Shown here: positions 3,038 to 63,483 of the stretch, one piece after another | How positions within the stretch are numbered: the first letter of the stretch is position 1 | Layout: each line of letters starts with the position of its first letter | Origin: Candidatus Zambryskibacteria bacterium RIFCSPHIGHO2_01_FULL_46_25 | GTDB taxonomy: Bacteria > Patescibacteriota > Minisyncoccia > Phycocordibacterales > Zambryskibacteraceae | Assembly (NCBI GenBank): GCA_001825155.1 | Contig: MHVH01000005.1 | Span: 3,528 to 67,527 of the forward strand | Direction of reading: 5' to 3' | Length of the DNA: 64,000 nucleotides | The notes under the pieces: generated by a model | Told to the model about the DNA's origin: nothing | The model's database searches: none | The model's input: the letters and a program-made list of their open reading frames with translations, nothing else | Made by a program: the position numbers and the translations under genes

Positions 3038-4771
3038 ATGTGCGGAATAGCTGGTTTTATAGATAAAAGTAATAAATATGATATTGCTGAGAGGGAAGAT
3101 CTTCTTCATCGAATGTTGGGCTTGATTGAGCATAGGGGAGGTGACTCTATGGGTATTAAAACTATAGGTTCGGTTACGATGGGTCATACCAGGTTATCAA
3201 TATTAGACGCAGATAAGCGAGCCTATCAGCCTATGGCAAGTGATAACACGGTGCTCTCTTTTAATGGTGAGATATATAATCACTCAAAACTTCGAAGTCA
3301 ATACTGTAAGAGTCAAAAAATAAGTTCTTACTCAGACACCTCAACACTTTTTGCTTTGTTGCAAACACTTTCGTTAAAGAAAGTACTGGCTCTAATTCAC
3401 GGTATGTATGCGTTTAGTTTCTTAGACATGAGAAACAAATCATTAAGCCTTATTTTAGATAAACTAGCAATCAAACCATTGTATTATGTAGACACTCCAG
3501 ATTTTTTTGCTTGGGCTTCAGAAATAAAAGCTTTCAAAGCAATTCCCGGTTTTAAGTTTAAGTTTCGTGATGATGGCTTGGAAGAATTTATGTGTTTTAG
3601 ATATATTGTTGGTGAAAAAACTTTATTTAAGAATATATACAAGATGCAAGCTGGTGAAATCTTAACTTTTTCGCTTAAGACAAATTTTTTTAACAAAAAA
3701 ATATATTACAAACTACAGAAATCAAAAAAACAAAGTGGATCATCCTTGAGCAGACTCTTAAAAGATAGTGTTTATAATCATCTGATGAGTGATATTCCAA
3801 CTGGAATCCAATTGAGTGGCGGGGTAGATTCTAGTCTGGTAGCTTATTTTGCCCAGAAGTTTTCTAAAAAACCACTTCATACATTTTCTATAGGTTTAAA
3901 AAACAATAAGTGGAATGAGTTTATATATTCTGATATGGTGGCGAAACTTTTGAAAACCAACCATCATAAAATAACTTTTTCAAAACGAGACTTTATTAGG
4001 TTGTTTTCAAAGCTCACCTATCATCTAGATGAGCCTATTGTTCATCCAAACACTATTCCTATGTATTTACTAGCAAAAGAAGCAAGAAAATACACAAAAG
4101 TTCTATTAACTGGTGAAGGGGCGGACGAAGTATTTTATGGGTACAACAGATATTTTCAAAAGCTTTTGAAATCAAGTAAAGACATCCTTATTTCCAATTC
4201 ATTTACTGACCCGAAGTTTGTCTCGTCTATCTTAAAAAAGTTTAACCCCGTTTTCTTGAAAAGACTAGCAATCATAAAAAATGTGGAAGGAGCAAGTATA
4301 GTCAATAGGGTGAGCTATTATGACGTTTATAGTTATTTACCACATGTCCTATTGAGGCAAGATAAGGCGGGAATGGTAGCGAATATAGAAAATAGGGTGC
4401 CTTTTCTTTATGATTCTGTTTGTGAGTACGGCTATAATTCAAAAGACAAAGTTGGAAAATATGGTGGTAAGAACTCAATTAAAAAGATCGCACTAAAATA
4501 TCTTCCTAAAGATTTAGTCTTAAGAAAGAAAATAGGTTTTGGCTTACCAATTTCCAACTGGCTGAAAGACAATAGTGGGTTTTTACCACACCTTTCTAAT
4601 TTAAAAAATCATCAAATAATTAAAAGGTATTTTATTAAAAGTGAGATTAATCAGCTTATTAATGAACATGTAGCAGAGGATAATGATCACTCAAGTATAC
4701 TGTTTACTCTCATTAGTTTGATGACATGGTATGACATTTTTATAAACACTTCCTTACCACATAAACCATAA
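3038..4771 (+). CDS. asnB: asparagine synthase (glutamine-hydrolysing), AsnB family, copy 1
   Basis: N-terminal MCGIAG (class II glutamine amidotransferase nucleophile Cys2). PP-loop SGGVDSS. 577 aa. AT-rich. Confidence 0.85.
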   Translation: MCGIAGFIDKSNKYDIAEREDLLHRMLGLIEHRGGDSMGIKTIGSVTMGHTRLSILDADKRAYQPMASDNTVLSFNGEIYNHSKLRSQYCKSQKISSYSDTSTLFALLQTLSLKKVLALIHGMYAFSFLDMRNKSLSLILDKLAIKPLYYVDTPDFFAWASEIKAFKAIPGFKFKFRDDGLEEFMCFRYIVGEKTLFKNIYKMQAGEILTFSLKTNFFNKKIYYKLQKSKKQSGSSLSRLLKDSVYNHLMSDIPTGIQLSGGVDSSLVAYFAQKFSKKPLHTFSIGLKNNKWNEFIYSDMVAKLLKTNHHKITFSKRDFIRLFSKLTYHLDEPIVHPNTIPMYLLAKEARKYTKVLLTGEGADEVFYGYNRYFQKLLKSSKDILISNSFTDPKFVSSILKKFNPVFLKRLAIIKNVEGASIVNRVSYYDVYSYLPHVLLRQDKAGMVANIENRVPFLYDSVCEYGYNSKDKVGKYGGKNSIKKIALKYLPKDLVLRKKIGFGLPISNWLKDNSGFLPHLSNLKNHQIIKRYFIKSEINQLINEHVAEDNDHSSILFTLISLMTWYDIFINTSLPHKP

Positions 4772-6216: not shown

Positions 6217-8985
6217 ATGCAGGAATACGACCCGAAAAATATAGAAGCGAAGTGGCAGAAAGAGTGGGAGAAATCCGGTCTTTATCGTGCAGAGGATTCT
6301 TCCGAAAGGCCCAAGTATTACTCTCTCATTGAGTTTCCTTATCCTTCCGGCGATGGCTTGCATGTCGGTCATCCTCGCCCGTATATCGGCATGGATGTCA
6401 TTTCGAGGAAGAAGAGGATGGACGGCTTCAACGTGCTTTATCCCATAGGCTGGGACGCCTTCGGTTTGCCAACGGAGAATTATGCCATCAAGACCGGCCG
6501 TCCTCCGTCCGAAATTACGAAAGAGAATACCGACACATTCCGCAGACAAATCCAGTCTCTCGGAATATCTTTCGACTGGTCGCGGGAGATAAACACGACC
6601 GACCCGAAATATTACAAATGGACACAGTGGCTCTTCTTGAAATTTCTCGAACATGGTCTGGCGTACAAAGCAAAAATTCCGATTAATTGGTGTCCGCAGG
6701 ACAAAATTGGTTTAGCGAACGAAGAAGTCTTGTCCGTTGGCGGACAAGAAGTCTGCGAACGCTGCGGCACGCCGGTCGAACAGAGGGAGAAAGAGCAATG
6801 GATGCTTGCCATTATTAAGTACGCGGAGAAACTTTTGAGTGACCTGGACACTGTTGATTATCCCGAGCGCGTCAAAGTTCAGCAGAAAAATTGGATTGGA
6901 AAATCTGAAGGAGCGGAGATAGAATTTAAAATCAAAAATCAAAAACCAAAAATCAAAGTTTTTACCACTAGGCCGGATACCATTTTTGGCGCGACTTTTT
7001 TGGTAAAAGCGGGAAAAGAAGACAAATTCACGGGAAAGTATGCCATCAATCCGGCTACTAAAGAAGAGATTCCGATTTGGGAAGCAGAATATGTCATGGG
7101 CGACTACGGCACCGGAGCCATTATGGGCGTACCCGCGCATGATGAAAGGGATTATGATTTTGCTATTAAGCATGATTTGCAGATAAAACACGTAATAATG
7201 CCAGTTTTGCCGGATCCGACCAATCCTCATCGAACCGACAAAGAAGTCATTGTTCGCAAAGTTACTTTAAGCATCATCTATGATCCGAAAGCAAAGAAAT
7301 ATCTGTCTCTAAAATGGAAAAAAGTTCCGTGGAGAACTTTTATCACCGGTGGAATCGAAGAGGGGGAAGATCCGATACTGGCCGCAAGAAGGGAAATAGC
7401 GGAAGAAACAGGATACACGGATATTAATCTGGTTAGAGTCCTGGGAGGCAAGACCCAAGCGGAATTCTACGCGGAACACAAGGGCGTTAATCGCATCGCG
7501 TATGACACTTTGATCCTTTTTGAACTTGTAAGCGATGCGCGTCAGACAGTGGCAGCCGAAGAACTCGATAAACACGAGGTCGAATGGATAACCGAAGACG
7601 AATTTAAGAATGCGCGCATAAATCACTCGGAAATAGACATCATCAGGAAACGCATCGAGACCGGCAAGGATTTTTATATCGGAGAAGGCGTTCTCGTAGA
7701 TTCAGAAGGATTTGACGGTTCATCTAGCGAAGAAGCAAGGGGAAAGATTACCGAGAAATTTGGCAAAAAGGTTGTCAAATACAAACTCCGGGACTGGGTT
7801 TTTTCGAGGCAGAGATACTGGGGCGAGCCAATACCGGTTGTGCATTGCGCTAAGTGCGGCATTGTGCCGGTGCCGGAGAAAGATTTGCCGGTGCTGTTGC
7901 CGAAAGTCAAGAATTACGAGCCTACCGATACGGGCGAATCGCCGCTCGCGGCCATAGAAGAATGGGTCAATACATCGTGCCCTAAGTGCGGTGGCGATGC
8001 CAAGAGAGAGACCGACACCATGCCCAACTGGGCCGGTTCTTCGTGGTATTTCCTCGCTTATCTTTTCGACAAAAAGGGATTTGAGAATCCCGCATCCATT
8101 GAAAATTGGAAATTGCAAATTGAAAATTTCCGGCATTTCATGCCGGTTGACTGGTACAACGGTGGTATGGAGCACACGGTACTTCATCTTCTCTATTCGC
8201 GTTTCTGGAACAAATTCCTGTTTGATATTGGTCTTGTGCCGACAAGCGAGCCGTACAAGAAGCGCACTTCCCACGGTCTGATTCTCGCCGAAGGGGGAGA
8301 GAAGATGAGTAAGTCGAAGGGCAATGTCATTAATCCGGACGCAATCGTCGAGCGCTTCGGCGCGGATACCCTGCGGGTCTATGAGATGTTCATGGGCCCC
8401 TTCGAGCAGGCGATAGGGTGGAGTGAGGCATCGCTTGTCGGACCGAGAAAATTTTTAGAGAGGGTTTGGCGGTTGAAAGATAAAATTCACCAAGGCAAGG
8501 CCTTAGATACCAATTCCCAAGGCCTTGCCTTGGTTCATCGAACTATCAAGAAAGTGACTAATGATATCGAAGCGATGGGATTCAACACCGCAGTATCAAC
8601 CCTGATGATTTTTGCGAATGACTTGGAAAAAAGAAAAGGAATCTCTCAAGAAGAATACGAAACATTGCTAAAGTTGTTAGCGCCATTCGCGCCGCACATG
8701 ACAGAAGAATCGTGGCACCAACTTGGACATTCGATGTCCAAATCGATTCACGAAGAGCTCTGGCCCAAGTTCGATGAAACAAAACTTGTATCTGAGACTG
8801 TTACGATTGTGGTTCAGGTCAACGGCAAGGTACGTGCGAAGTTTACGACCCAGTCTATCGTGGAAGAAAAAGAGGCTATCGACTTGGCAATGAACTTACC
8901 CGAAACGCAAAAGTGGGTTGGGGATAAGAAGGTGGAGAAGACCATTTATGTGCCTGGAAAACTGGTAAATATCGTGGCAACTTGA
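6217..8985 (+). CDS. leuS: leucyl-tRNA synthetase with embedded Nudix-like domain
   Basis: HVGH (HIGH) motif, TTRPDT CP1 motif, KMSKS, C-terminal VQVNGKVRAK. About 140-aa insertion at aa 341-470 containing a perfect Nudix box GGIEEGEDPILAARREIAEETGY. Confidence 0.95.
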   Translation: MQEYDPKNIEAKWQKEWEKSGLYRAEDSSERPKYYSLIEFPYPSGDGLHVGHPRPYIGMDVISRKKRMDGFNVLYPIGWDAFGLPTENYAIKTGRPPSEITKENTDTFRRQIQSLGISFDWSREINTTDPKYYKWTQWLFLKFLEHGLAYKAKIPINWCPQDKIGLANEEVLSVGGQEVCERCGTPVEQREKEQWMLAIIKYAEKLLSDLDTVDYPERVKVQQKNWIGKSEGAEIEFKIKNQKPKIKVFTTRPDTIFGATFLVKAGKEDKFTGKYAINPATKEEIPIWEAEYVMGDYGTGAIMGVPAHDERDYDFAIKHDLQIKHVIMPVLPDPTNPHRTDKEVIVRKVTLSIIYDPKAKKYLSLKWKKVPWRTFITGGIEEGEDPILAARREIAEETGYTDINLVRVLGGKTQAEFYAEHKGVNRIAYDTLILFELVSDARQTVAAEELDKHEVEWITEDEFKNARINHSEIDIIRKRIETGKDFYIGEGVLVDSEGFDGSSSEEARGKITEKFGKKVVKYKLRDWVFSRQRYWGEPIPVVHCAKCGIVPVPEKDLPVLLPKVKNYEPTDTGESPLAAIEEWVNTSCPKCGGDAKRETDTMPNWAGSSWYFLAYLFDKKGFENPASIENWKLQIENFRHFMPVDWYNGGMEHTVLHLLYSRFWNKFLFDIGLVPTSEPYKKRTSHGLILAEGGEKMSKSKGNVINPDAIVERFGADTLRVYEMFMGPFEQAIGWSEASLVGPRKFLERVWRLKDKIHQGKALDTNSQGLALVHRTIKKVTNDIEAMGFNTAVSTLMIFANDLEKRKGISQEEYETLLKLLAPFAPHMTEESWHQLGHSMSKSIHEELWPKFDETKLVSETVTIVVQVNGKVRAKFTTQSIVEEKEAIDLAMNLPETQKWVGDKKVEKTIYVPGKLVNIVAT
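8098..8131. repeat. ATTGAAAATT-type 12-nt tandem repeat cluster, in-frame inside leuS (encodes IENWKLQIENF)
   Basis: attgaaaattggaaattgcaaattgaaaatttcc. Same repeat family as 32437..32470 and 34287..34319. Confidence 0.6.
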
Positions 8986-11338: not shown

Positions 11339-12219
11339 TGAAGGATCAATCGCAGGCAGTGAAGGTTTATTTATTTCTTGTGGGGATTATCGTGCTTGTG
11401 GCTGCTGTGAGATATCTTACGCCACCCAGCGATTTTCCAACCGGTTCCATGGTTACAGTAGTGGAAGGTTCAGGACTCTATGTGCTTGCGGAGAACTTAC
11501 AAGAACAAAATGTCATACGCTCTCCCTTTTGGTTTCGCGCTGCCGCTATACTTCTCGGCGGAGAAAGAGATATGAAAGCCGGCCAGTATTATATGGAGCG
11601 ACCCCAAAATCCCTTTTTCGTCGCCTGGCGTATCCATCAGGGTCGGTACGACGTCGAGACGGTCAGGCTTACTGTGCCGGAAGGATTTACAATAAAAAAG
11701 ATTTCCGCGCTTTTTGATGAACGCTTCCCATTTTTTGATAATGCGTATTTCGAGAACTCGGCTCCAGAAGGGTATCTCTTTCCGGACACGTACTTCGTGC
11801 CAGTTACCGCGTCGGCTTCTTCGACGGTAAAGATAATGCGAGACAATTTCATCAGAAAAATTTTCCCCGTAATGCCAGAAGTGGAGGATTCTGGGAAAGA
11901 GCTTGAAGATATCATCATCGTGGCCTCGCTCATAGAAGGGGAGGCGAATAATCAAAAAGATAGGGAAATAGTTTCCGGTATTTTGTGGAAGAGGCTCAAA
12001 ATAGGCATGCCGCTCCAAGTGGACGTGGAAAAGAAGACGTACGAATTCCAGGGCTTGCCAAAAAGCCCGATCAATAATCCCGGTCTCGACAGCATAAGGG
12101 CGGCACTTCATCCCACTTCGACGCCCTATCTCTATTATTTGACCGGTGATGACGGCAACATGTACTATTCCAAGACCTTTGACGAACATGTTGCCAAGAA
12201 GCAAAAATATATCAAGTAA
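11338..12219 (+). CDS. mltG: endolytic murein transglycosylase MltG/YceG
   Basis: N-terminal TM helix. YceG-like motifs (EGYLFPDTY, …GLPKSPINNPG…). Confidence 0.85.
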   Translation: MKDQSQAVKVYLFLVGIIVLVAAVRYLTPPSDFPTGSMVTVVEGSGLYVLAENLQEQNVIRSPFWFRAAAILLGGERDMKAGQYYMERPQNPFFVAWRIHQGRYDVETVRLTVPEGFTIKKISALFDERFPFFDNAYFENSAPEGYLFPDTYFVPVTASASSTVKIMRDNFIRKIFPVMPEVEDSGKELEDIIIVASLIEGEANNQKDREIVSGILWKRLKIGMPLQVDVEKKTYEFQGLPKSPINNPGLDSIRAALHPTSTPYLYYLTGDDGNMYYSKTFDEHVAKKQKYIK

Positions 12220-13327
12220 AAAGGTTTACGTCGGACTCTCCGGCGGGGTTGACTCTGCTGTCTCAGCAGCTTTGCTTAAGGAGCAAGGTTTCGATGTGAC
12301 CGGCGTTTTTATTAAGGCGTGGCAGCCAGAATGGATGGCTTGCATTTGGCGTGAGGAGCGCCGGGACGCCATGAGAGTTGCTCTCGCGCTTGATATTCCA
12401 TTTCTTTTTTTAGATTGCGAGCGTGAGTACAAGCAGGCGGTAGTGGATAAGATGATTGCCGAGTACAAAGCGGGCCGCACACCGAATCCGGACGTGCTCT
12501 GCAATCGGGAAATCAAGTTCAGCGTCTTTTGGGAAAAAGCTCGCGAACTCGGCGCGGACTATATTGCAACCGGGCATTATGCGAGAAATCCCTCCCTGCC
12601 CCTCCCTTTGTCAAGGGAGGGGAATAAAACTGATACCCCCTTGATAAAGAGGGCTGGGGGATTGTGTGAAGGAGTCGACAAAGAAAAAGATCAAAGTTAT
12701 TTTCTCTGGATTCTGACCGAAAAGGACTTGTCCCACGTCATTTTTCCGGTGGGAGATTTGGAGAAGAGGGAAGTGCGAGAACTCGCGCAGAAATTCAAAT
12801 TACCCGTGGCGGAGAAGAAGGATAGCCAGGGTATATGCTTCATGGGTGATGTTTCCATGGAGGAATTTCTCTCCCACTATGTTTCCGCGAAGCCCGGCAA
12901 AGTTATGAACGCCGATGGAGAAGTGATAGGCAGGCACGAAGGTCTTGTCTACTACACTATCGGCGAACGGCGCGGCTTCGAAGTGACAAAAAAGAGCGCC
13001 GCGAGCGGGCCGTTCTATATTGTGGCGAAGGACCCGGACACGAATACTCTTGTCGTATCTGACAAAGAAGAAGAGATTCTGGAATTTTCTCCGACCAAAA
13101 TACTTTTGAAAAATGTTAATTGGATTAATGAGCCAGAGAATTCGGAAATTTCCGGCAGAGTCCGCTATAGGGGAGAGAAATTGCCTCTAAGGCTGTCGGT
13201 TGTGGGTCGTCGGTTGTCTGTTGAATTCAAGAATCCCGTTCCCGGCCTCTCTCTCGGTCAGTCGCTGGTCTTCTACGACGGCGAGAATTGCCTCGGCGGC
13301 GGCATCATGGACAAAGTTTTGGAATAA
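12188..13327 (+). CDS. mnmA: tRNA-specific 2-thiouridylase MnmA
   Basis: PP-loop VGLSGGVDSAV, AEYKAGRTPNPDVLCN, C-terminal GQSLVFYDGENCLGGG. Start codon uncertain; ATG 12188 overlaps the mltG end. Carries an 81-bp in-frame repeat insertion. Confidence 0.85.
   Translation: MLPRSKNISSKKVYVGLSGGVDSAVSAALLKEQGFDVTGVFIKAWQPEWMACIWREERRDAMRVALALDIPFLFLDCEREYKQAVVDKMIAEYKAGRTPNPDVLCNREIKFSVFWEKARELGADYIATGHYARNPSLPLPLSREGNKTDTPLIKRAGGLCEGVDKEKDQSYFLWILTEKDLSHVIFPVGDLEKREVRELAQKFKLPVAEKKDSQGICFMGDVSMEEFLSHYVSAKPGKVMNADGEVIGRHEGLVYYTIGERRGFEVTKKSAASGPFYIVAKDPDTNTLVVSDKEEEILEFSPTKILLKNVNWINEPENSEISGRVRYRGEKLPLRLSVVGRRLSVEFKNPVPGLSLGQSLVFYDGENCLGGGIMDKVLE
12587..12667. mobile_element. 81-bp MITE-like miniature of the DUF559 TIR element, inserted in-frame in mnmA
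   Basis: Left part (aatccctccctgcccctccctttgtcaagggagggg) and right part (cccccttgataaagagggctgggggattgtgt) match the two termini of the element at 42228..42677. Length 81 is divisible by 3. Adds about 16 aa (…NPSLPLPLSREGNKTDTPLIKRAGGLCEG…) relative to canonical MnmA between GHYAR and DQSYFL. Confidence 0.6.
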
Positions 13328-13374
13328 TAATTATAGACAGCCCAAAATACATACTGAAGTGCACAAAATCCCAT

Positions 13375-13412
13375 ATACGTTATAATTATGCGGTCGCACA
13401 ATAGTAGCGTAT
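13375..13412. promoter_or_regulatory. 38-bp palindromic element (ATACGTTA-N22-TAgCGTAT), copy 1, overlapping the start codon of the PaaX-like gene
   Basis: atacgttataattatgcggtcgcacaatagtagcgtat. Near-identical copy at 14001..14038. Confidence 0.5.
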
Positions 13413-13977
13413 GGGTAAATTAGAAGAAAAAAGCGGAAAAAGATCCAAAAGAAAGCATTTGCAATACGCCATATTTCAAACTGTTGCCGCTGTCGGGGTT
13501 TTAAGCGCGGCTGTCATGGCCCCGAACGTACTAATTGCCATGGATAAGCTCGGCTCGATTCCAAACAGAAGACAGAAAGAATATATTAGTTCATCTGCCA
13601 GTAAATTAGTCAAGCGAGGACTGCTTCACTTCGATGGCAAAAGATATCAAATGACCTCAATAGGGGAGAGTCTATTCCGGCGTTGGCAATTTGCAGATTT
13701 CCAGATCCAAAAACCTAAGAGATGGGATAAAAAGTGGCGGGTTATGATTTTTGATATCCCGGAGAAGAAAAGAAAGATCAGAAATGATCTAACCACGTTA
13801 TTTCGCGCGGCCGGCATATACCGTCTCCAAAACAGCGTTTGGGTATATCCGTATGAATGCGAGGATATCATTACTTTGCTCAAAACCGATTTCGGCATCG
13901 GCAAGTATCTTCTATATATGATTGTCGATGAGCTTGAAAATGATAAATATTTGCGTCAGCACTTCGGTCTTATCTAG
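13411..13977 (+). CDS. PaaX-family transcriptional regulator (wHTH N-terminus, Cas2-like C-terminal region)
   Basis: WDKKWRVMIFDIPE…LQNSVWVYP resembles the PaaX WDGKW hinge and the Cas2/VapD core (catalytic-Asp region, QNSVF). 188 aa. Confidence 0.55.
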   Translation: MGKLEEKSGKRSKRKHLQYAIFQTVAAVGVLSAAVMAPNVLIAMDKLGSIPNRRQKEYISSSASKLVKRGLLHFDGKRYQMTSIGESLFRRWQFADFQIQKPKRWDKKWRVMIFDIPEKKRKIRNDLTTLFRAAGIYRLQNSVWVYPYECEDIITLLKTDFGIGKYLLYMIVDELENDKYLRQHFGLI

Positions 13978-14000
13978 CTCAATTTAATTAAAAAATCCCT

Positions 14001-14038
14001 ATACGTTAAAGTCATGCGGTCGCACAAAAGTAACGTAT
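14001..14038. promoter_or_regulatory. 38-bp palindromic element copy 2 (ATACGTTA-N22-TAACGTAT), about 58 nt upstream of the ATP-cone nuclease gene
   Basis: atacgttaaagtcatgcggtcgcacaaaagtaacgtat. TATAAT at 14083 follows. Confidence 0.5.
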
Positions 14039-23212: not shown

Positions 23213-23214
23213 TC

Positions 23215-23237
23215 ACTTAGCTGTCCGACAGCTAAGT
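23215..23237. repeat. perfect palindrome ACTTAGCTGTC-CG-GACAGCTAAGT (copy 1). Probable bidirectional terminator
   Basis: Copies at 23581..23603 and 63372..63394. Located after the rpsI stop and downstream of the minus-strand small gene. Confidence 0.6.
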
Positions 23238-23318
23238 TGTGTGAATTTTTGCAAAACGAAACCCCGTACCAGAGCCGAAGCTTAGTACGGGGCGTGGGAT
23301 AGGTGTCGGCGGCGGGTT

Positions 23319-23580: not shown

Positions 23581-23603
23581 ACTTAGCTGTCGGACAGCTA
23601 AGT
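23581..23603. repeat. palindromic repeat copy 2 (ACTTAGCTGTC-GG-ACAGCTAAGT)
   Basis: Brackets the AT-rich small-gene insert together with copy 1. Confidence 0.6.
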
Positions 23604-23667
23604 GCTGAAGTGGAGGAATTCCAGTGGTTGAAGTTGCATATTATTTTGCCTAGAGCATACTAACATT

Positions 23668-30276: not shown

Positions 30277-30972
30277 ATGACTGCCGGATTTTCTGTAAAA
30301 ACCGAAGTGTTTGAAGGACCCTTGGATCTCCTGCTTGAGCTTGTGAGCAAGCGGAAGCTCTTCGTCAATGATGTATCGCTTTCCGAAGTGGCGGACGACT
30401 TCATCCGCCACATCTCGGAAATGGAGGAATACTCCCTTTCTCTCTCCGCGGAATTTATCCTCGTCGCCTCGACTCTGATGCTTATCAAATCGCGCTCGCT
30501 CCTGCCGACACTCGAGTTTACCGAGGAGGAAGAAGAAAGCATCCACGACCTTGAGAATAGGCTGTTAGCCTATTCTCACACCCAAGAGCTGGCAGCAAAA
30601 CTCAAAGCAATTTTCGGCAAGAGCATCATTTTCGAGAAGACGCCCTCAAAGAATCCTCTCATAGTCTTCTCTCCGGATGCCGAAACCAATCCGGAGAGCC
30701 TTCTCTCCGCTCTCGAGCGAGTTATAGAAGCGCTGCCGAAGAAAGAGGTTCTCTCCAAGGTTACGGTCAAGAAGGTTATTAGCCTTGAAGAGATGATCGA
30801 AAAGCTCACGGAACGGATATCAAAGTCCGGGAAATTGTATTTCAAAGATCTCAAACATAAAGACAAGATCTCGATGATCGTGGGTTTTCTCGCCATGCTC
30901 GAGCTTGTGAAGCGCGGCATTATCAGCGTGAAGCAGCACAGTCGGAACGAAATTGAAATCGAACATGCTTGA
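30277..30972 (+). CDS. scpA: segregation and condensation protein A
   Basis: ScpA N-terminus (…FEGPLDLLLELV…). Confidence 0.85.
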   Translation: MTAGFSVKTEVFEGPLDLLLELVSKRKLFVNDVSLSEVADDFIRHISEMEEYSLSLSAEFILVASTLMLIKSRSLLPTLEFTEEEEESIHDLENRLLAYSHTQELAAKLKAIFGKSIIFEKTPSKNPLIVFSPDAETNPESLLSALERVIEALPKKEVLSKVTVKKVISLEEMIEKLTERISKSGKLYFKDLKHKDKISMIVGFLAMLELVKRGIISVKQHSRNEIEIEHA

Positions 30973-31507
30973 ACAAAAAATAGAATCAATACTGTTGTTC
31001 AAAAACGAGCCGGTCACTCTCGCGGAGCTTTCCAAGATACTTAATGTCCCGCGAGAGAATTTACAATTTGCAATTTCCAATTTACAAAAAAAATATGAGA
31101 ATTCGGGAATAGTTATCATCACGGATGGAGAGAATTACAGCCTCGGCACGCATCCAGACAATTCGGAACTGATAGAAGAAATTCAGAAAGAGGAGCTCAA
31201 CCGCGACATCGGGCGGGCGGGGCTCGAAACTCTGGCGATTATCCTGTATCGTGGGCCGGTATCGAGGAGAGAGATTGACTACATCAGAGGCGTCAATTCG
31301 AGCTTCATCCTGCGTTCGCTCCTCATCCGCGGTCTTGTCGAGCGAACCGATATTCCAGGCGAACGAAGCTACAGTTACAAGCCGACGCTGAAGCTCCTTG
31401 AACATCTCGGAGTGTCGCGCCGAGAGGATTTGCCGGAGTATGGCGCGGCGGAGAAGAAGGTGGAAGAATTTATCCAAAGCGGCATAGATGGAGAGAAAGA
31501 TGATTAA
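30953..31507 (+). CDS. scpB: segregation and condensation protein B
   Basis: ScpB winged-helix signature …GLETLAIILYRGPVSRREIDYIRGV…. Confidence 0.85.
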   Translation: MKSNMLEQKIESILLFKNEPVTLAELSKILNVPRENLQFAISNLQKKYENSGIVIITDGENYSLGTHPDNSELIEEIQKEELNRDIGRAGLETLAIILYRGPVSRREIDYIRGVNSSFILRSLLIRGLVERTDIPGERSYSYKPTLKLLEHLGVSRREDLPEYGAAEKKVEEFIQSGIDGEKDD

Positions 31508-32447
31508 AAAATTTTTTAAAAACAGGGAGCTCGAGATTAAATTTTTTGTATTTTTGGCAATGGGATTGTCACTCCTTTTACTCGTATCGTATGTCTTGGG
31601 TTCGAAGATTGAGAGAGGGGACAATTCTGTAGGGACGGGACTTGTCCAGAGCCGATTCCCGGAAATGATGCTTAAGGCTAAGGCCGCTTATGTCTACGAT
31701 GCTCGCACCAAGACTGTTCTTTATGCCAAAAACGAGAATACTCGCATGCCGCTCGCCTCGCTTACCAAGGTCATGTCGGCTCTCGTGGCAAAAGAGCTTA
31801 GTCCGGACTATTCCACCGTAACGATTAGTCGTAGCGCTCTCGATACGGATGGCGACAGCGGTCTTCGTCCGGGAGAGAAATGGAGGCTCAAAGATATTCT
31901 CGACTTTTCCCTCGTGGCTTCTTCGAACGACGGCATGCGCGCGGTGGCTCTTGCTCTGGGTGCGCTTGAGCAATCCGATGCCTCCGATGAAGAAATTATC
32001 GGAGAGTTCGTCTCTCGCATGAACAGGAAGGCGGCGGAGATTGACCTCAAGAATACTTATTTCCGCAATGAGACGGGGCTCGATGAGACGGAATTCAAGG
32101 GCGGAGCCTACGGCACGGCAAGGGACATGTCTTCTCTCATGGAGTATATTCTCCTTTATCATCCCGACTTGCTTGAGGCTACGCAAGAGGTTTCCATGTT
32201 CGCCTTGTCTCTTGACGACTATCGCCACGAAGCAAAGAATACCAATCCTCTGGCCGGGAGGATTCCCGGTCTTGTGGCATCGAAGACCGGCTTCACCAAT
32301 ACTGCCGGAGGCAATCTGGCTCTCATATTCGACCCGGAGCTTGGTCGGCCGATTGTCGTTACCATTCTCGGTTCGACCGAAGAGGGCCGATTCGAAGACG
32401 CACAAACACTCATTAATGCTACTCTCAAGCATCTCAATGAAAATTGA
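31488..32447 (+). CDS. D-alanyl-D-alanine carboxypeptidase (peptidase S11, PBP5-like)
   Basis: Signal/TM N-terminus. SLTK (SxxK) active-site motif and SSND-like SxN motif (VASSNDG). Confidence 0.8.
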   Translation: MERKMIKKFFKNRELEIKFFVFLAMGLSLLLLVSYVLGSKIERGDNSVGTGLVQSRFPEMMLKAKAAYVYDARTKTVLYAKNENTRMPLASLTKVMSALVAKELSPDYSTVTISRSALDTDGDSGLRPGEKWRLKDILDFSLVASSNDGMRAVALALGALEQSDASDEEIIGEFVSRMNRKAAEIDLKNTYFRNETGLDETEFKGGAYGTARDMSSLMEYILLYHPDLLEATQEVSMFALSLDDYRHEAKNTNPLAGRIPGLVASKTGFTNTAGGNLALIFDPELGRPIVVTILGSTEEGRFEDAQTLINATLKHLNEN

Positions 32448-32470
32448 AAATTATAAATTGAAAATTTTAC
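32437..32470. repeat. ATTGAAAATT-type tandem repeat cluster upstream of asnB copy 2
   Basis: aatgaaaattgaaaattataaattgaaaatttta. Spans the dacB-like C-terminus (…HLNEN*) and the asnB2 intergenic region. Confidence 0.6.
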
Positions 32471-32474
32471 CCCT

Positions 32475-34319
32475 ATGTGCGGAATAACAGGGATCACAGA
32501 CAAAAACCTAGCGAAGAAAGAGTTCATCGAGAAGATGACCACTGTTATCGCCCACAGAGGCCCTGATGACGACGGTTTTCTCGTCGACGAACATGTCGCG
32601 CTTGGCATGAGGCGACTTTCAATTATTGATTTAGTCCACGGGGAACAGCCTATTGCGACGCCTGACGGTCGATATAAAATTTTCTTCAACGGTGAGATTT
32701 ACAACTATAAAGAATTAAAGAAAGAGTTGAATAATTATCAATATAAAACCGAGAGTGACACGGAAGTAATACTGGCAGGATTTGTGAAGTGGGGTCCGGA
32801 AGTTCTGAAAAAGCTCCGCGGAATGTTTGCCTTTTGTATTTATGATACGCAGGAGAAGAAAATTTTCTTGGCTCGGGATTTCTTCGGCATAAAACCCTTA
32901 TATTACTGGACACAGGCAAGGCCTATGGGTCCCATAGGCCTTGCCTGTGTAGCGTTTTCTTCCGAGATAAAAAGTTTCTTTGAGTTACCCGGATTCAAGC
33001 CGGAGGTGAATGATGCCGCCGTCTACAACTATCTTTCATACCAATACAATCCGCTGGAAGAAACTTTTTTCAAAAATGTTTTCAAGCTTCCTCCCGCGCA
33101 CTATCTGACGATCGATCTCAAGACTGGCAAGTGGGAGAAGAAGCGCTATTGGCAGTTCAAGTTCTCTCCAGAAGAAGCTCTGGACGAGGAGAATACGCGC
33201 AAAGAGATTCTAAATACGATGGAGGATTCGGTGGCGCATCATATGATTGCCGATGTGCCGGTGGGTTCCTTCTTGTCGGGTGGTATAGATTCCTCTATCA
33301 TCGCAACCTTGATGCAGAAAGTTCGTGGCGAGAAAAAAATAAAAACCTTTACCGTCGGTTTCAACTCTGTAAGCGAAGGTAGGGAAGCGAAAGAGACTTC
33401 AGAGCCGCTTGGTACAGACCATACGGAAATCAGTGTCGGGGCCGAAGAATACTTTGCCACCTTACCCAAGGCGGTGTGGCACTTCGACGAGCCGGTGGCG
33501 GACCCGTCGGCCATCGGGCTTTATTTCCTGGCTCGCGAGGCGAGAAAACACGTCAAGGTGGTGCTCTCGGGAGAAGGCGCCGACGAGCTCTTCGGTGGAT
33601 ACAACATTTATCTCGCGCCCATTGCCGCCGAGAGATTGCGCAAGTTTCCGAAATTCATTTTGAAATTAATCAGTGTACTGCCATTCCGCGGTAGAAACTA
33701 TGCTCAAAGAGCTCTCTTGAAGCTCGAAGACTGGTACATAGGCAATGCCTTAGTATTTAAGCCAGAAGAGATTAGGTCTCTCTGGCGAGACAACCCTATG
33801 TCAAGGGGCATCCTTGACACTCTATATCGAGAAGCGGCTGGGCTCAGCGATTCGACCAAGATGCAATACATAGACATAAACACTTGGCTAGTGGGTGACA
33901 TCCTCGCCAAGGCGGACAAGATGACTATGGCACATTCGCTCGAGCTCCGAGTGCCGTTTTTGGACAGCTCCGTAGCGACACTTGCTTCAAAGCTTCCGAA
34001 TAAATTTAAGTGGCATAATGGTGTAACGAAGTATCTCTTGCGGGAAGCTTTCAAAAATGTTTTGCCGGAATCCACGCGTAAGCGCAAGAAGCTCGGTTTC
34101 CCGACGCCGGTGCGTGAATGGATTACGAAAGAGAGAACGAATGTCATTCTCGAAAATCCATATATCAAATCGCATTTCGATGTTGCAAAAATCGAAGAAT
34201 TGATTAGCGACCATATCTCAAAAAGAACCGACAACTCGCGCAAAATCTACCTCCTCCTCATGCTCGCCCTCTGGTACAATGTATTTATTGAAAATTCTAA
34301 ATTGAAAATTGAAAATTAA
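32475..34319 (+). CDS. asnB: asparagine synthase (glutamine-hydrolysing), AsnB family, copy 2
   Basis: MCGITG N-terminus. SGGIDSS PP-loop. 614 aa. C-terminus (…IENSKLKIEN*) is encoded by the tandem repeat. Confidence 0.85.
   Translation: MCGITGITDKNLAKKEFIEKMTTVIAHRGPDDDGFLVDEHVALGMRRLSIIDLVHGEQPIATPDGRYKIFFNGEIYNYKELKKELNNYQYKTESDTEVILAGFVKWGPEVLKKLRGMFAFCIYDTQEKKIFLARDFFGIKPLYYWTQARPMGPIGLACVAFSSEIKSFFELPGFKPEVNDAAVYNYLSYQYNPLEETFFKNVFKLPPAHYLTIDLKTGKWEKKRYWQFKFSPEEALDEENTRKEILNTMEDSVAHHMIADVPVGSFLSGGIDSSIIATLMQKVRGEKKIKTFTVGFNSVSEGREAKETSEPLGTDHTEISVGAEEYFATLPKAVWHFDEPVADPSAIGLYFLAREARKHVKVVLSGEGADELFGGYNIYLAPIAAERLRKFPKFILKLISVLPFRGRNYAQRALLKLEDWYIGNALVFKPEEIRSLWRDNPMSRGILDTLYREAAGLSDSTKMQYIDINTWLVGDILAKADKMTMAHSLELRVPFLDSSVATLASKLPNKFKWHNGVTKYLLREAFKNVLPESTRKRKKLGFPTPVREWITKERTNVILENPYIKSHFDVAKIEELISDHISKRTDNSRKIYLLLMLALWYNVFIENSKLKIEN
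34287..34319. repeat. ATTGAAAATT-type tandem repeat cluster forming the 3-prime end of asnB copy 2
   Basis: attgaaaattctaaattgaaaattgaaaattaa. Confidence 0.6.
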
Positions 34320-42227: not shown

Positions 42228-42677
42228 AATCCTCCCCCATAAATCCCTCCAACCCCCCTTTATCAAGGGAGGTGAATCATGAAATACAATTTTATTCCAT
42301 ATGATAAAAATCTGGTACTCCGGGCCAGAGAATTAAGAAATAATCAAACGGAAGCAGAGAAATACTTTTGGACCAATGTTCTTAAAAGTAAAAAATTCAA
42401 GACTTTCATATTTTTGAGACAAAAACCGGTTGGAAATTTCATTGTCGATTTCTACTGCTCGCGTTTGTTACTCGGCATAGAAATTGACGGCCATATCCAT
42501 GACAAGAATAGGGATAAAGAAAGAGATAATATATTAAAAGAGAAATTCGGGATTACGGTCCTTAGGTATAGAAACGAAGATGTTATGGATAATCCTGAAA
42601 AAATTGTGAAAGACCTATTGCGACAAATGAAAGGTTGATCCCTCCCTTGATAAAGGGAGGGCAGGGAGGGATTGTGT
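42228..42677. mobile_element. about 450-bp element with imperfect terminal inverted repeats (AATCC(C)TCCC… / …GGGAGGGATTGTGT) carrying a DUF559/Vsr-like nuclease gene
   Basis: Left end cctcccccataaatccctccaacccccctttatcaagggagg. Right end ccctcccttgataaagggagggcagggagggattgtgt, the reverse complement of the left end. A miniature derivative lies at 12587..12667. Confidence 0.6.
42279..42638 (+). CDS. DUF559-type endonuclease-domain protein (Vsr/PD-(D/E)xK-like)
   Basis: …RQKPVGNFIVDFYCSRLLLGIEIDGHIHD… signature of the DUF559/very-short-patch-repair-like fold. 119 aa. AT-rich. Confidence 0.7.
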   Translation: MKYNFIPYDKNLVLRARELRNNQTEAEKYFWTNVLKSKKFKTFIFLRQKPVGNFIVDFYCSRLLLGIEIDGHIHDKNRDKERDNILKEKFGITVLRYRNEDVMDNPEKIVKDLLRQMKG

Positions 42678-42689
42678 TAAAATGAGCCC

Positions 42690-51647: not shown

Positions 51648-52871
51648 TTATTTATTCAAAATCTCAAGCGCTTTGTTCATCTGCGGATCGCGGCCGGCCT
51701 GGAAGTCCGCTGGAGTGCGGATGATTTGATAATCCGGTTCTATCCCCCTCTCCGATATTGAAAGGCCGTTTGGCGTAAGCCATCTTGCCACCGTGACCTT
51801 GAGCGAGGTCTCTGAAGTGATGTCCACGAGTTCTTGCACCGACCCCTTGCCGAAAGTTGTTTCCCCGACGAGTATGGCCCGTCCATGTTCGGCCAAGGCG
51901 CCAGCCAAAATTTCCGAAGCGGAGGCGGAACCCTTGTCTATAAGAATTACGAAATCAAGTTTCCTGTTAGCGAAGATATCATATCCCCTGCTTCTATATG
52001 CCCGCTCCTCCCTTCTGTCGCCGAAGTCCTCCCGCACGATTACCTTGCTTGCCGGCAGAAACCGACTTGCCATGTCTATGGCCGCTTCAAGATAACCGCC
52101 CGGATTGCCACGCAAGTCGAGAATGAGTTTGTCCGAGCCGGAGAGGATAAATTCGCGCAAGGCTCCGCGGAAAAGATTTGGCGATTGTTCCGAGAAGCTG
52201 TATAACTCGATAACGAAGATTCCTCCCGGAAGCGTTTTGGTATTGATAACCGGTATATTGATGACATCGCGAATAATTTTTACTTCGAAAGGCTCTTTCG
52301 TTCCGTTTCTAAAGACCGTAAGCGCCACGGTTGTGCCTCGGGGTCCGCGAATGAGCTGGACGGCATCTTCCGTAGTAAGGCCGTTCGTGTCTTTGTCACC
52401 AATTTTTATAATTCTGTCTCCCGCCAGCATACCGGCGCCGGAAGCTGGACTGCCCTTCAGAGGTGCTATCACCGTAATCGCTCCCTCTTGAGCCAAGACT
52501 TCCATACCCACTCCTTCGAAGTTGCCACGGATATCAGAGGCGAAGAGCTCTGACTCCACCGGCGGGAAGAAGACGGTATACGGGTCGCCGAGTGATGCTG
52601 CCAAGCCCTCGATAGCCCCATAGAGCTTATCTTCGTCCCCCACTGTTGCCACGGTGGTGCTTGCGGGCACGTACTTCTCATTGATGATATTCCACGTTTT
52701 CCAGAAAGGGCTGAAGTCGATGTTATCGACTTCAGCAGATTCGGCATTCTCGACGCTTGAAACGGCGCCGGAAATCCGGTTTTCACCGGAGCGGAATCCC
52801 ATGCTGTAGAAAACGAAAGCGATAATCACTCCGAGTCCGATGATAGCCCCGTGTCTTTTTAAGAATTCCAT
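51648..52871 (-). CDS. ctpA: carboxyl-terminal processing protease (peptidase S41) with PDZ domain
   Basis: …GDRIIKIGDKDTNGLTTEDAVQLIRGPRGTTV… (PDZ) and …IDLRGNPGGYL… S41 motifs. Start taken at MEFLKRHG. Confidence 0.85.
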   Translation of the reverse strand: MEFLKRHGAIIGLGVIIAFVFYSMGFRSGENRISGAVSSVENAESAEVDNIDFSPFWKTWNIINEKYVPASTTVATVGDEDKLYGAIEGLAASLGDPYTVFFPPVESELFASDIRGNFEGVGMEVLAQEGAITVIAPLKGSPASGAGMLAGDRIIKIGDKDTNGLTTEDAVQLIRGPRGTTVALTVFRNGTKEPFEVKIIRDVINIPVINTKTLPGGIFVIELYSFSEQSPNLFRGALREFILSGSDKLILDLRGNPGGYLEAAIDMASRFLPASKVIVREDFGDRREERAYRSRGYDIFANRKLDFVILIDKGSASASEILAGALAEHGRAILVGETTFGKGSVQELVDITSETSLKVTVARWLTPNGLSISERGIEPDYQIIRTPADFQAGRDPQMNKALEILNK

Positions 52872-52899
52872 TCGAAGTATTTTAACATATAATGGTGAT

Positions 52900-54261
52900 A
52901 TGACACTCAAGCTTCACAATACTTTGACGGGCAAGGAGGAGGAATTCCACCCGATAGAGAAAAGCAAGACAAAGATGTTTGTCTGTGGGCCTACCGTTTA
53001 CGACTATTCCCATCTGGGCCACGGCAAGACCTATACCCAGTTTGACGTAATCGCCCGGGCACTAAGGTATCTGGGCCATGAATTGACTTACGTCGTGAAT
53101 ATTACCGATATAGACGACAAGATAATAAAACGCGCCACCGAACGAGGGGTGGATCCGGCCGCACTTGCGCAGGAATACGAAAAGGCCTATGTCGAAGATA
53201 TGCGGGCTCTTAATGTAGTGAATATAGATAAATACGCTCGCGCCCATGATTATGTGCCGGAAATAGTAAGTCAGGTAAAGCGTTTGATTGAGAATGGTTT
53301 GGCGTACAAAATCTCCGACGGTTATTACTTCGACGTAAAGAAATTCGATGATTACGGGAAGCTGTCCAGGAGAAATATTTTGAAACCCAATGACGCGGTT
53401 TCGCGCATAGACGAGAATCCGGAGAAGAGAAATCCGGGCGATTTTTGCTTGTGGAAATTACGCAAGAAAGGCGAACCATTCTGGTCATCGGAGTTGGGCG
53501 AGGGCCGTCCAGGCTGGCACATAGAGGACACCGCCATTACCGAGAAAGAGTTCGGAGCGCAATACGATATTCACGGCGGCGCCGTGGATCTCATTTTCCC
53601 GCACCATGAAGCGGAAATCGCCCAGATGGAATCAATCTCGGGCAAGAAGCCCTTGGTTCGTTATTGGCTCCATACGGGTTTTTTAAACATCAGTTCCGAA
53701 AAAATGTCTAAGAGTCTCGGCAACTTCCTCACCATCCGAGATGTATTGGCGAAGGGCGTTTCTCCCCTGGCTTTGCGCTATTACTTCCTCACCGCGCATT
53801 ACCGCACGCCCATGGATTTCTCGTGGGAAGCGCTCGAAGCGGCGCAGAACGCATACCGCAAACTCAAGGAGTTTGTTTCCACCCCCACCAGCCTCCCCCT
53901 TACCAAGGGGGAGGTGCCAGAGGCGGAGGGGGTGTATTTGGATGAATTTAAATCTGCGCTTGAAAACGATTTAAATACTCCAGAAGCGCTAGGGGTGGTG
54001 TGGAATCTTATCAAAGATGAATCAATCTTCCCCGCCAACAAGCGCGCGACGCTTCTTGAATTCGACAAAGTACTCGGCCTCGACCTGGAACACAATGAAT
54101 TTTTGAATGTGCCGCCGGAAGTCGTTGAGCTGGGTGAACAAAGACAGAAGGCAAAGGAGAATAAAAATTTTGCCGAAGCGGATAAGATAAGGCAAGAGAT
54201 CGAGAACAAGGGCTTCGAAATCCGCGACACCGAAGGCACGTTTATTATAATGAAGAAATAG
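52900..54261 (+). CDS. cysS: cysteinyl-tRNA synthetase
   Basis: MTLKLHNTLTGKEEEFHPI…MFVCGPTVYDYSHLGHGKTY (HIGH) and KMSKS. Confidence 0.9.
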   Translation: MTLKLHNTLTGKEEEFHPIEKSKTKMFVCGPTVYDYSHLGHGKTYTQFDVIARALRYLGHELTYVVNITDIDDKIIKRATERGVDPAALAQEYEKAYVEDMRALNVVNIDKYARAHDYVPEIVSQVKRLIENGLAYKISDGYYFDVKKFDDYGKLSRRNILKPNDAVSRIDENPEKRNPGDFCLWKLRKKGEPFWSSELGEGRPGWHIEDTAITEKEFGAQYDIHGGAVDLIFPHHEAEIAQMESISGKKPLVRYWLHTGFLNISSEKMSKSLGNFLTIRDVLAKGVSPLALRYYFLTAHYRTPMDFSWEALEAAQNAYRKLKEFVSTPTSLPLTKGEVPEAEGVYLDEFKSALENDLNTPEALGVVWNLIKDESIFPANKRATLLEFDKVLGLDLEHNEFLNVPPEVVELGEQRQKAKENKNFAEADKIRQEIENKGFEIRDTEGTFIIMKK

Positions 54262-54558: not shown

Positions 54559-54580
54559 TAGGAACTCCTTCCGCGGAATA

Positions 54581-54645
54581 CTCTACAATAATATTTAAAC
54601 TTCCGCAACTACATAATAACAATACGACCGTCGGCTTATTATGTA
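54581..54645. promoter_or_regulatory. 65-bp upstream repeat copy 1 (contains inverted repeat TACATAATAA-N…-TTATTATGTA)
   Basis: ctctacaataatatttaaacttccgcaactacataataacaatacgaccgtcggcttattatgta. Copy 2 at 55307..55375. Confidence 0.55.
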
Positions 54646-54734: not shown

Positions 54735-55235
54735 CTAGAGAAGTTGCTCCAGGCGGCTTGTCAATTCTCTCTCGACCTCGCAGAGCCCCCCGACTTCTTC
54801 ACGAATTTTCCTGGCGGCCATGTCGTCCATGACGTGAAAGTCGACGATTGTCCCAATCATCGTCGCCACGTTATGGACCTTCATCAACAAGTCCTCGACG
54901 TCTTCTGGTAGTTCGCCCGAAATCGGGAAGACCCCGAGGAAATCGAAGAGCTTGTTGACCATGCTGCGGTTGATCTTCGACACGATGCCGGTCATCGCCC
55001 GGTCAATATCCGTGTCCTGGTACGTTTCCAGGAGCTCGAGGGAAATCTCGATGTTTTCCCCGTCGAACTTGCGCTCGCCGGGCAGAACTCTCACGAAGTT
55101 CCTTCGTACTCCTGGACCGTTCGGGTCTGTTTCCTCCGGCCATTCCGTAATCTGGAGCTGATTCGGTATCTTCCCCAGTTCTTCCAACAGCCGGGCCAGC
55201 GCCTGAATCGGAACCCTTGTCTTGAAAAGAGCCAT
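54735..55235 (-). CDS. hypothetical protein (166 aa)
   Basis: AGGAGG SD. Monocistronic unit with its own repeat-containing upstream region and terminator. Confidence 0.45.
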   Translation of the reverse strand: MALFKTRVPIQALARLLEELGKIPNQLQITEWPEETDPNGPGVRRNFVRVLPGERKFDGENIEISLELLETYQDTDIDRAMTGIVSKINRSMVNKLFDFLGVFPISGELPEDVEDLLMKVHNVATMIGTIVDFHVMDDMAARKIREEVGGLCEVERELTSRLEQLL

Positions 55236-55306
55236 GCTGTCCTCCTGTAGGCAAAGCCTACCTGGAAACTTCGAGTGCGGAATTGCTCTCGAATGGACAA
55301 CCTAAA

Positions 55307-55375
55307 CTCTACAATAATATTTAAATATACGCAACTACATAATAAGCCGACGACCGTTTGCTTATTATGTAGTTG
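55307..55375. promoter_or_regulatory. 65-bp upstream repeat copy 2 (CAACTACATAATAA-N16-TTATTATGTAGTTG)
   Basis: ctctacaataatatttaaatatacgcaactacataataagccgacgaccgtttgcttattatgtagttg. Confidence 0.55.
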
Positions 55376-55402
55376 TGGCTAGGGAGTTACAAAATAAAAG
55401 AC

Positions 55403-63371: not shown

Positions 63372-63394
63372 ACTTAGCTGTCCAACAGCTAAGT
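63372..63394. repeat. palindromic repeat copy 3 (ACTTAGCTGTC-CA-ACAGCTAAGT)
   Basis: Third member of the 23215 and 23581 family. Followed by a perfect 22-bp palindrome ACACTATGATA/TATCATAGTGT at 63401..63422. Confidence 0.6.
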
Positions 63395-63483
63395 TGTGAC
63401 ACACTATGATATATCATAGTGTCCTACGTTATCTTTTAGCTATAGCAGAATTGTAACGTATGTGAATTTTTGCAAACGCGAAG

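Follow-up and report, generated by a model that had tools for sequence, protein, structure and literature searches.

Rickettsia palindromic elements (RPEs) are, in the account of them given in PMC10969869 with reference to Ogata et al., short palindromic repeats that lie in frame in unrelated housekeeping genes and are translated as an extra peptide compatible with the fold of the protein. In the REPIN/RAYT system, lineage-specific hairpin repeats occur as inverted doublets, and a single resident, vertically kept gene of nuclease type is flanked by the same repeats (PMC3116915). The structural group of Vsr and DUF559 includes a proven homing endonuclease, I-Bth0305I (PMC3424549, PMC3239194), and free-standing genes for Vsr-like homing endonucleases have hairpins that sequester the ribosome-binding site (PMC2677866). 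The subject of this report is a palindromic insert in the mnmA gene (tRNA 2-thiouridine synthase) of Candidatus Zambryskibacteria bacterium RIFCSPHIGHO2_01_FULL_46_25, found within a 64,000-nucleotide stretch of contig MHVH01000005.1 that was analysed as a whole (the window), together with a resident unit some distance away in the same window that consists of a DUF559 gene between related hairpin ends. DUF559 is a very large family of unknown function which includes E. coli YcjD.

The mnmA insert consists of two inverted arms without a nuclease gene (Table 1), each of which is a form of what is termed here a three-box module. From the outside inwards the module has an outer C-rich box, 2-3 nt and a hairpin whose arms repeat the box, and the opposite end is the complement with the hairpin followed by an outer G-box. 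The left arm reads AATCCCTCCC-TG-CCCCTCCC-TTTGTCAA-GGGAGGGG with a perfect 8-bp stem in the hairpin, and the right arm reads CCCCC-TTGATAAA-GAGGG-CT-GGGGG-ATTGTGT. In alignment, positions 12586-12621 matched the DUF559 unit's right end (42640-42677), read as its reverse complement, at 34 of 35 positions. A blastn-short search with that right end against the window returned the left arm with 33 of 35 identities (E=3e-8), and the 35-nt identity takes in the outer box and the loop. The right arm (12631-12670) was ~85% identical to the same end in direct orientation (42636-42680) with three small gaps, and was recovered by nhmmer at E=7.9e-8 with a model that was itself built with this arm. The left arm was also ~85% identical to the left end of the unit. 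The core hairpin pattern was matched five times in the window, where shuffled sequence gave an expectation of 0.00. Formal alignment (33-34 of 35) therefore bears out the original prediction that the insert is related to the termini of the DUF559 unit. That prediction had also taken the two halves to be the two termini with the gene deleted, of which the gene-less derivative stands and the assignment of one arm to each end does not, since both arms are nearer to the right end. These similarities support the description of the insert as a gene-less, two-armed derivative of the DUF559 unit ends that would be read in frame with mnmA.

Table 1. Coordinates of the mnmA insert, its host gene, the resident DUF559 unit and a further doubtful hairpin in the window
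Feature	Position	Strand	Basis
mnmA (tRNA 2-thiouridine synthase), host gene, uninterrupted, frame kept across insert	12188..13327	+	ORF list and Pfam
Palindromic two-armed insert (module doublet, without nuclease gene), predicted translation NPSLPLPLSREGNKTDTPLIKRAGGLC	12586..12671 (approx.)	+	Alignment to both DUF559 unit ends; missing in L002
Left module of insert: outer C-box CCCTCCC (12590-12596), hairpin CCCCTCCC-TTTGTCAA-GGGAGGGG (12599-12622), then GAAT	12586..12625	+	Alignment, strict three-box scan
Right module of insert, degenerate: hairpin CCCCC-TTGATAAA-GAGGG (12636-12653), outer G-box GGGGG, terminal ATTGTGT	12636..12671	+	Alignment, nhmmer
Left module of resident DUF559 unit: hairpin 42253-42272, G-arm GGGAGG = Shine-Dalgarno, 5-6 nt before ATG	42240..42278	+	Sequence; inverted repeat with right end
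Free-standing gene for DUF559 (119 aa), with the fold of a Vsr-like PD-(D/E)XK nuclease	42279..42638	+	Pfam PF04480 E=1.6e-28
Right module of resident unit: hairpin CCCTCCC-TTGATAAA-GGGAGGG, CA, outer G-box GGGAGGG, ATTGTGT	42639..42677	+	Sequence
Possible diverged solo module in cysS (52840..54261), read PTSLPLTKGEV	53880..53917	+	Weak: 8-bp hairpin

The size and limits of the insert were set by comparison with the closest insert-free ortholog, L002, whose MnmA is 77% identical and reads GHYAR-N-ADGK-LF-EG at this place. The window has 24 residues for the four of ADGK, a net gain of 20 codons (60 bp), and ~12 nt of the empty site were replaced. The element-derived end GGGATTGTGT now provides codons for Leu-Cys in place of the CTG TTC of the empty site. 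The insert had been given as exactly 81 bp at 12587-12667, but the similarity runs over ~12586-12671 and the gain is 20 codons rather than 27. No target-site duplication and no direct repeat were found at the junctions in the comparison with the empty site of L002. An independent metagenome contig, L001, with 22 differences from the window in 21140 positions, carried an identical insert, so that an assembly artefact is excluded. The insert contains no stop in the host frame and the mnmA ORF is continuous, in agreement with the prediction of an in-frame insertion. Just inside the arms, GAAT...TGAT matches the Shine-Dalgarno spacer and the stop-codon region of the free-standing DUF559 unit, which is consistent with an internal deletion, although it may also have come about by copying of the ends alone.

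The host gene is intact. All three MnmA Pfam domains (tRNA_Me_trans, _M and _C) are present in the ORF, which is of full length, and the ATG start at 12188 was taken from the call in the near-identical contig L001, with the stop at 13327. Between the TGHYAR and KDQSYFLW motifs the predicted protein reads NPSLPLPLSREGNKTDTPLIKRAGGLC. An AlphaFold model with 62 orthologs as input had a mean predicted local distance difference test score (pLDDT) of 89.4 and a predicted template modelling score (pTM) of 0.86, and Foldseek aligned it to the solved MnmA structures 2hma and 2det with template modelling (TM) scores of 0.87-0.89. Residues 126-150, which correspond to the insert, had no secondary structure and a pLDDT of ~54, with strands at 123-125 and 151-153 on either side. 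In the model the insert forms the extended, probably disordered tip of a beta-hairpin, and the earlier placement in a loop agrees with this low-confidence unstructured region.

Like an RPE, the mnmA insert is a short palindrome lying in frame in a housekeeping gene and would be translated, and the comparison with RPEs made in the original prediction holds as an analogy. RPEs measure ~100-150 bp and belong to Rickettsia and relatives, whereas the present insert of ~85 bp is from Patescibacteria and corresponds to the end module of a DUF559 unit, so it is set beside RPEs by description and not by sequence. We know of no nuclease or autonomous partner associated with RPEs. A resemblance to transposable elements of the miniature inverted-repeat type (MITEs) lies in the two inverted arms within ~86 bp, the lack of an own ORF and the ends common to a longer gene-carrying unit. 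Unlike a MITE, the insert has no target-site duplication, and its partner DUF559 is not a known transposase and is syntenically fixed.

The resident unit spans 42240..42677 and its gene matched PF04480 over 106 of 109 profile positions. Further matches were to NCBIfam PRK09767/YcjD and to the PDB relative 3hrl (E=3.7e-24), and the invariant D, ExDG, H and R positions of the family are kept here as well as in the copies embedded in host genes described below. The stop codon adjoins the right hairpin. The gene lies between murG and gltX in the window and in six relatives (L007, L013, L014, L016, L017 and L098), and these syntenic loci hold nested modules. The shared position indicates that the unit of the window is resident and not a recent insertion. 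In pairwise comparison its right module had 91% identity with its counterpart in L098 and 95% with the one in L007, while murG, gltX and the DUF559 ORF had 71-73% DNA identity between the window and L098. The right module is therefore more conserved than its coding neighbours, which means that it is under selection and that something reads it. A G3-N-G3-NN-G3-N-G3 motif of G-quadruplex type (GGGAGGGCAGGGAGGG) is present at 42655-42670 in the right end, and its complement is present in the left arm of the mnmA insert.

The association of modules with DUF559 extends across the family. Of the 84 DUF559 loci in the sample, a metagenome scan with a DUF559 alignment supplied 80, and a single-protein scan of genome contigs gave 5 loci. 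Flanking inverted repeats of three-box architecture were present at ~55 of the 84 loci (z>5 relative to shuffles) in many lineages, and although stems and loops are specific to the lineage, both ends of one unit match. A strict three-box scan found 251 modules in 534 kb of these loci and none after block shuffling. In loci that had been chosen for DUF559, 141 of the 251 modules were at most 120 nt from a DUF559 gene, and the other 110 were away from DUF559, including doublets and arrays. The stop codon falls inside the right hairpin loop at many loci and its position relative to the hairpin is variable.

Tandem arrays of modules were observed at L047:2147-2285, L090:3519-3817, L041:947-1237 and L054:62-593. 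Some arrays are read as repeated peptides in restriction or methylase genes (SPLTPTLSPLHKGGEGEGSGG three times, SPCPADIPLGKGDSSTAPLGKGGSRGD four times), and others are intergenic with periods of 66 bp and 170 bp. In E. coli K-12, ycjD (L095, NC_000913.3 1351100-1352100) starts at a long perfect hairpin, CACCTCATTCTGACAA...TTGTCAGAATGAGGTG, and is followed downstream by CCCTCTCCCTGAAAGAGCGAGGGGG, a partial duplicate of the ycjD 3' end and GGGTTAGGGG. This gene may serve as a culturable model of the link between module and nuclease.

The inverted hairpin doublet and the associated gene with the same repeats at its flanks recall the REPIN/RAYT system. RAYTs belong to the HUH/Y1 (IS200/IS605-like) transposases and REPINs lie outside genes, whereas the gene here is a DUF559 of the PD-(D/E)XK (Vsr-like) type, the module has an extra outer box, and both repeats and gene can sit in frame inside genes. 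A Pfam scan of the resident gene gave no match to Y1_Tnp and returned DUF559 only.

The site of the mnmA insert was occupied repeatedly. In an alignment of 121 MnmA orthologs, 56 had extra residues exactly at the insert position, with at least 8 residues in 35 of them, while length variation at every other internal position was confined to at most three sequences. All 56 were called as continuous proteins. The closest relatives, including L002, and most orthologs have no insert. The syntenic relative L003 carries at the same site a C/G-box doublet of a different module subfamily, the DNA of L092 shows a GGAAGAAAAAACG...CGTTTTTTCTTC palindrome, that of L093 a AATTTCCAATT/AATTGAAAATT palindrome, and the insert of ortholog P0016 is partly similar. 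Peptide patterns suggest additional palindrome families at this loop. Judged from the alignment and the DNA that was read, the MnmA loop is a hotspot at which palindromes of at least four families have inserted. The possibility, raised earlier, that orthologs would have the same extra loop without a repeat signature was not borne out, as L003, L092 and L093 each have their own palindromic repeat in the loop and the closest relatives are without extra residues. Among the best 120 of 8000 matches no MnmA ortholog contained a complete DUF559 at this loop.

A second, A/T-rich repeat family (TTGAAAATTGGAAATTGCAAATTGAAAATT), to which the MnmA-loop insert of L093 belongs, has copies in the window at 8097-8129, 31058-31087, 32435-32467 and 34286-34318. 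The first of these lies in frame in leuS (6217..8982), where it is read IENWKLQIEN, and the second lies inside a 191-aa open frame (30932..31504).

Whole DUF559 cassettes were found in frame within host genes. The leuS gene of L003 (3587-6808) has 151 codons more than that of the window, and the insert at ~4300-4745 is a complete in-frame DUF559 domain joined to its host by the translated modules LTPNPLSEGKGE and ALPFGEGWGGV. A protein search with this region found ~20 LeuRS proteins that carry DUF559. At least 16 of these show the two junctions at one and the same site, which follows NWIGxSxGAxIxF and precedes VFTTRPDT. Patescibacteria and Bacteroidota (Flavobacteriaceae, Mariniflexile, Bacteroidia) share this site, and the insertion is patchy, being absent from L001, L002 and the window. 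A second LeuRS insertion site for DUF559 was also found in the protein search. In-frame copies were present in the TGT of Zambryskibacteria, as a protein on at least 24 contigs, and in an RsmI-like methylase, and three-box modules at both junctions were confirmed from the DNA of L096 and L097. The metagenome loci added in-frame DUF559 in HsdS, N6 and N4 methylases, a DUF1156 methylase, a Type ISP enzyme and an MmeI-type enzyme. All invariant residues are kept in the embedded copies, which no longer have a start or a stop codon and continue the host frame across both junctions.

Among the LeuRS, TGT and RsmI copies, identity was 51-70% whatever the host gene or phylum, but only 38-44% to the free-standing copy of the window, to which the embedded copies form a sister clade. 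The independence of identity from the host indicates that one DUF559 lineage moved between genes; DUF559 cassettes with their modules have changed host gene and kept the frame. The host proteins of embedded DUF559 gave no match to an intein or Hint domain, and Rfam scans of the mnmA insert and the DUF559 unit of the window returned no family or intron. Reduced forms exist as well. In L053 the LeuRS insertion site holds a right-end module by itself (HPSSSEEGTGEV), and in L005 a solo module lies at the tip of a PNPase hairpin between GIAMG and DIxGxEDHxGDMDF. The mnmA insert of the window fits into a putative decay series with these LeuRS and PNPase remnants. In-gene insertion of such an element had been regarded as unusual by the original prediction, and the phenomenon proved far wider than was claimed, with whole cassettes in LeuRS, TGT, RsmI-like and restriction or methylase genes. 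A literature search on DUF559 together with repeats, Patescibacteria or inverted repeats returned no description of it, with subscription journals mostly outside the search, and this is no proof of novelty.

The assembly of one of the confirmed loci, L096 (Bacteroidia bacterium GCA_026003415.1), has many split genes, with truB, bacA and leuS in pieces. This suggests that the assembly is rich in frameshifts, and LeuRS-DUF559 proteins labelled partial in such records should not be taken for truly fractured genes.

The embedded DUF559 clade, as distinct from the free-standing copy of the window, resembles homing endonucleases in its patchy presence at the same conserved LeuRS site in distant taxa. 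A nuclease of the Vsr/DUF559 group behaving as selfish DNA beside conserved motifs of essential genes, and a ribosome-binding-site hairpin in the free-standing form, are further points of likeness. Known homing endonucleases lie in an intron or intein or split the host gene, whereas neither intron nor intein is detectable here, and the embedded DUF559 apparently remains part of the mature host protein on linkers encoded by the hairpin modules. One defining feature thus failed for each family compared, namely target-site duplication for MITEs, a Y1 transposase for RAYTs and a splicing element for homing endonuclease genes.

In our view the mnmA insert is quite probably derived, as a non-autonomous form, from a repeat system associated with a nuclease. 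In the mechanism proposed, two inverted three-box modules bracket a small DUF559 gene for a Vsr-like PD-(D/E)XK nuclease, and one full unit resides between murG and gltX with the ribosome-binding site carried by the left hairpin and the stop adjoining the right one. The module pair in mnmA, which lacks the nuclease gene, would have arisen either from a complete unit that inserted and then lost its ORF or from the ends being copied without the gene. It takes the place of the four-residue beta-hairpin turn between TGHYA and KDQSYFLW. The insert would be transcribed and translated with mnmA as a disordered loop of 24 residues rich in Pro, Leu, Ser and Gly that the enzyme tolerates. The DUF559 nuclease may recognise or cut the modules or the target, and spread may occur by copying during break or nick repair, in a homing-like manner or by REPIN/RAYT-like mobilisation in trans. 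Selection would then retain only copies that preserve the frame, in tolerant loops beside conserved motifs.

A wider and more tentative proposal is that DUF559 cassettes with three-box modules at their ends make up a class of selfish element that has so far gone unrecognised. This would be a homing-type nuclease without intron or intein whose hairpin ends double as flexible peptide linkers, so that the cassette and later gene-less remnants such as the mnmA insert could persist in frame in essential genes of several bacterial phyla. It is possible that such a class exists, and we put it forward with reserve.

Several observations weigh against the derivation of the mnmA insert from a mobile nuclease system. 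Three of the six reading frames of the insert are open, so that the in-frame state of this single case is not improbable, and is what selection would leave, and frame preservation in mnmA alone is weak evidence. The resident unit is syntenically stable across relatives and would seldom move, and the 64 kb hold only one miniature and one full copy besides one doubtful hairpin. The module pair in the mnmA of L003 is unlike the resident unit of L003 itself, which indicates that miniature copies need not come from the local unit and that a local origin, though it holds for the window, is not general. No target-site duplication was seen at the leuS or tgt copies, as at every in-gene copy checked. 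DUF559 has no known nuclease activity, target or transposition chemistry, and both the mechanism of mobility and the translation of the insert are what we infer from sequence.

Some of these observations are also what would be expected from the main alternative, in which the modules are an independent REP-like family spread by another enzyme or by recombination. DUF559 would then have recruited them as expression signals (a Shine-Dalgarno hairpin, a stop or terminator) or would be a favoured landing site for them, and the mnmA insert would have no relation to the nuclease. The Shine-Dalgarno sequence in the left hairpin, the stop that at many loci adjoins the right hairpin loop or falls within it, the 110 modules in arrays and doublets away from DUF559, the stability of the resident gene and the unlike miniature of L003 all agree with it. 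Against it stand the modules at both ends, in inverted orientation and with lineage-specific stems, at most loci of distant lineages, and an independent family does not account for modules that accompany the nuclease into unrelated host genes where a Shine-Dalgarno sequence and a stop are neither needed nor present. The 141 modules within 120 nt of DUF559 point the same way, although the loci were chosen for DUF559. We therefore regard an independent origin of the modules as unlikely, while it retains some weight.

It is also conceivable that the insert is not translated, the outer boxes pairing so that the segment is removed from the mRNA in an intron-like or processing event or is bypassed by the ribosome. 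The whole insert can fold with its ends in long-range pairing (RNA minimum free energy -38.4 kcal/mol, z=-2.4), and bacteria of the candidate phyla radiation (CPR) are known for unusual insertions in rRNA genes. The z-score of the fold is modest, however, and the insert is stop-free in the host frame. All 56 orthologs with extra loop residues are likewise called as continuous proteins. The embedded DUF559 copies, without start or stop and in frame at both junctions, have a form that splicing would not require, and neither the Rfam scans nor the search for intein or Hint domains in the hosts gave a match. Removal or bypass of the segment is accordingly very improbable.

A further reading treats the inserted peptide, or the DUF559 domain, as a selected functional addition of nucleic-acid-binding or regulatory character to enzymes that handle RNA or DNA, rather than as selfish DNA. 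The housekeeping hosts observed are all RNA enzymes (MnmA, LeuRS, TGT, RsmI-like, PNPase), with DNA methylases or restriction enzymes making up the rest, the embedded domain keeps its conserved residues, and the TGT fusion occurs on at least 24 contigs. Against this, the insertions are patchy among close relatives, palindromes with no relation to one another share the MnmA site, disorder is predicted for the mnmA peptide, one DUF559 lineage is found in unrelated hosts, and decayed remnants exist, so that a selected function has only a very slim chance of being the explanation. Ordinary lineage-specific growth of a variable MnmA loop, with the likeness to the DUF559 flanks due to low-complexity chance or to palindrome-generating replication errors in situ, would suit the hypervariable loop length among orthologs and the low complexity of C/G-run hairpins, but can be practically dismissed given the 35-nt match with its outer box and loop (E=3e-8) and the absence of the pattern from shuffled window sequence and of three-box modules from shuffled loci.

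If the nuclease-associated origin of the mnmA insert is correct, palindromic insertions in frame gain a partner enzyme and an origin, and DUF559 gains a biological role. There would then be a third way for a mobile nuclease to exist inside an essential gene, beside introns and inteins, namely to be kept in the protein on linkers encoded by hairpins. Many annotations of LeuRS, TGT, MnmA and methylases as partial or overlong in CPR and Bacteroidota metagenomes would be explained, and permissive insertion sites in these proteins would be marked. A small nuclease of 119 aa with a defined DNA module is thereby offered for testing.

A hairpin in cysS was considered as a third in-frame copy in the window and was kept as possible only. 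It has a perfect 8-bp C/G stem, a TTACCAA loop and an outer C-rich box (53880-53917), but nhmmer gave only E=0.16 and the protein had no added length relative to 150 CysRS representatives or to PDB 3tqo.

Other insertions and repeats were noted in the window. The LeuRS of the clade (leuS at 6217..8982 in the window, L001, L003 and L093) holds an internal NUDIX domain (Pfam PF00293) that is lacking in the LeuRS of L092, and this domain is another in-frame insertion. Just downstream of mnmA, 48-nt direct repeats that are 83% identical (13365-13412 and 13991-14038) surround a PaaX_M-like ORF of 188 aa (13411..13977), and since the gene is missing at that position in L002, L003 and L093 it looks like a small inserted unit. 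Direct repeats of 66 nt (86% identical, with an inverted component) at 54580-54645 and 55306-55378 surround ~690 nt with a 166-aa ORF on the minus strand (54735..55235). A perfect palindrome, ACTTAGCTGTCSGACAGCTAAGT, was present in three copies (23214-23241, 23581-23607 and 63372-63398), two of them followed by TGTGAATTTTTGCAAA, and is probably another intergenic repeat or a regulatory site.

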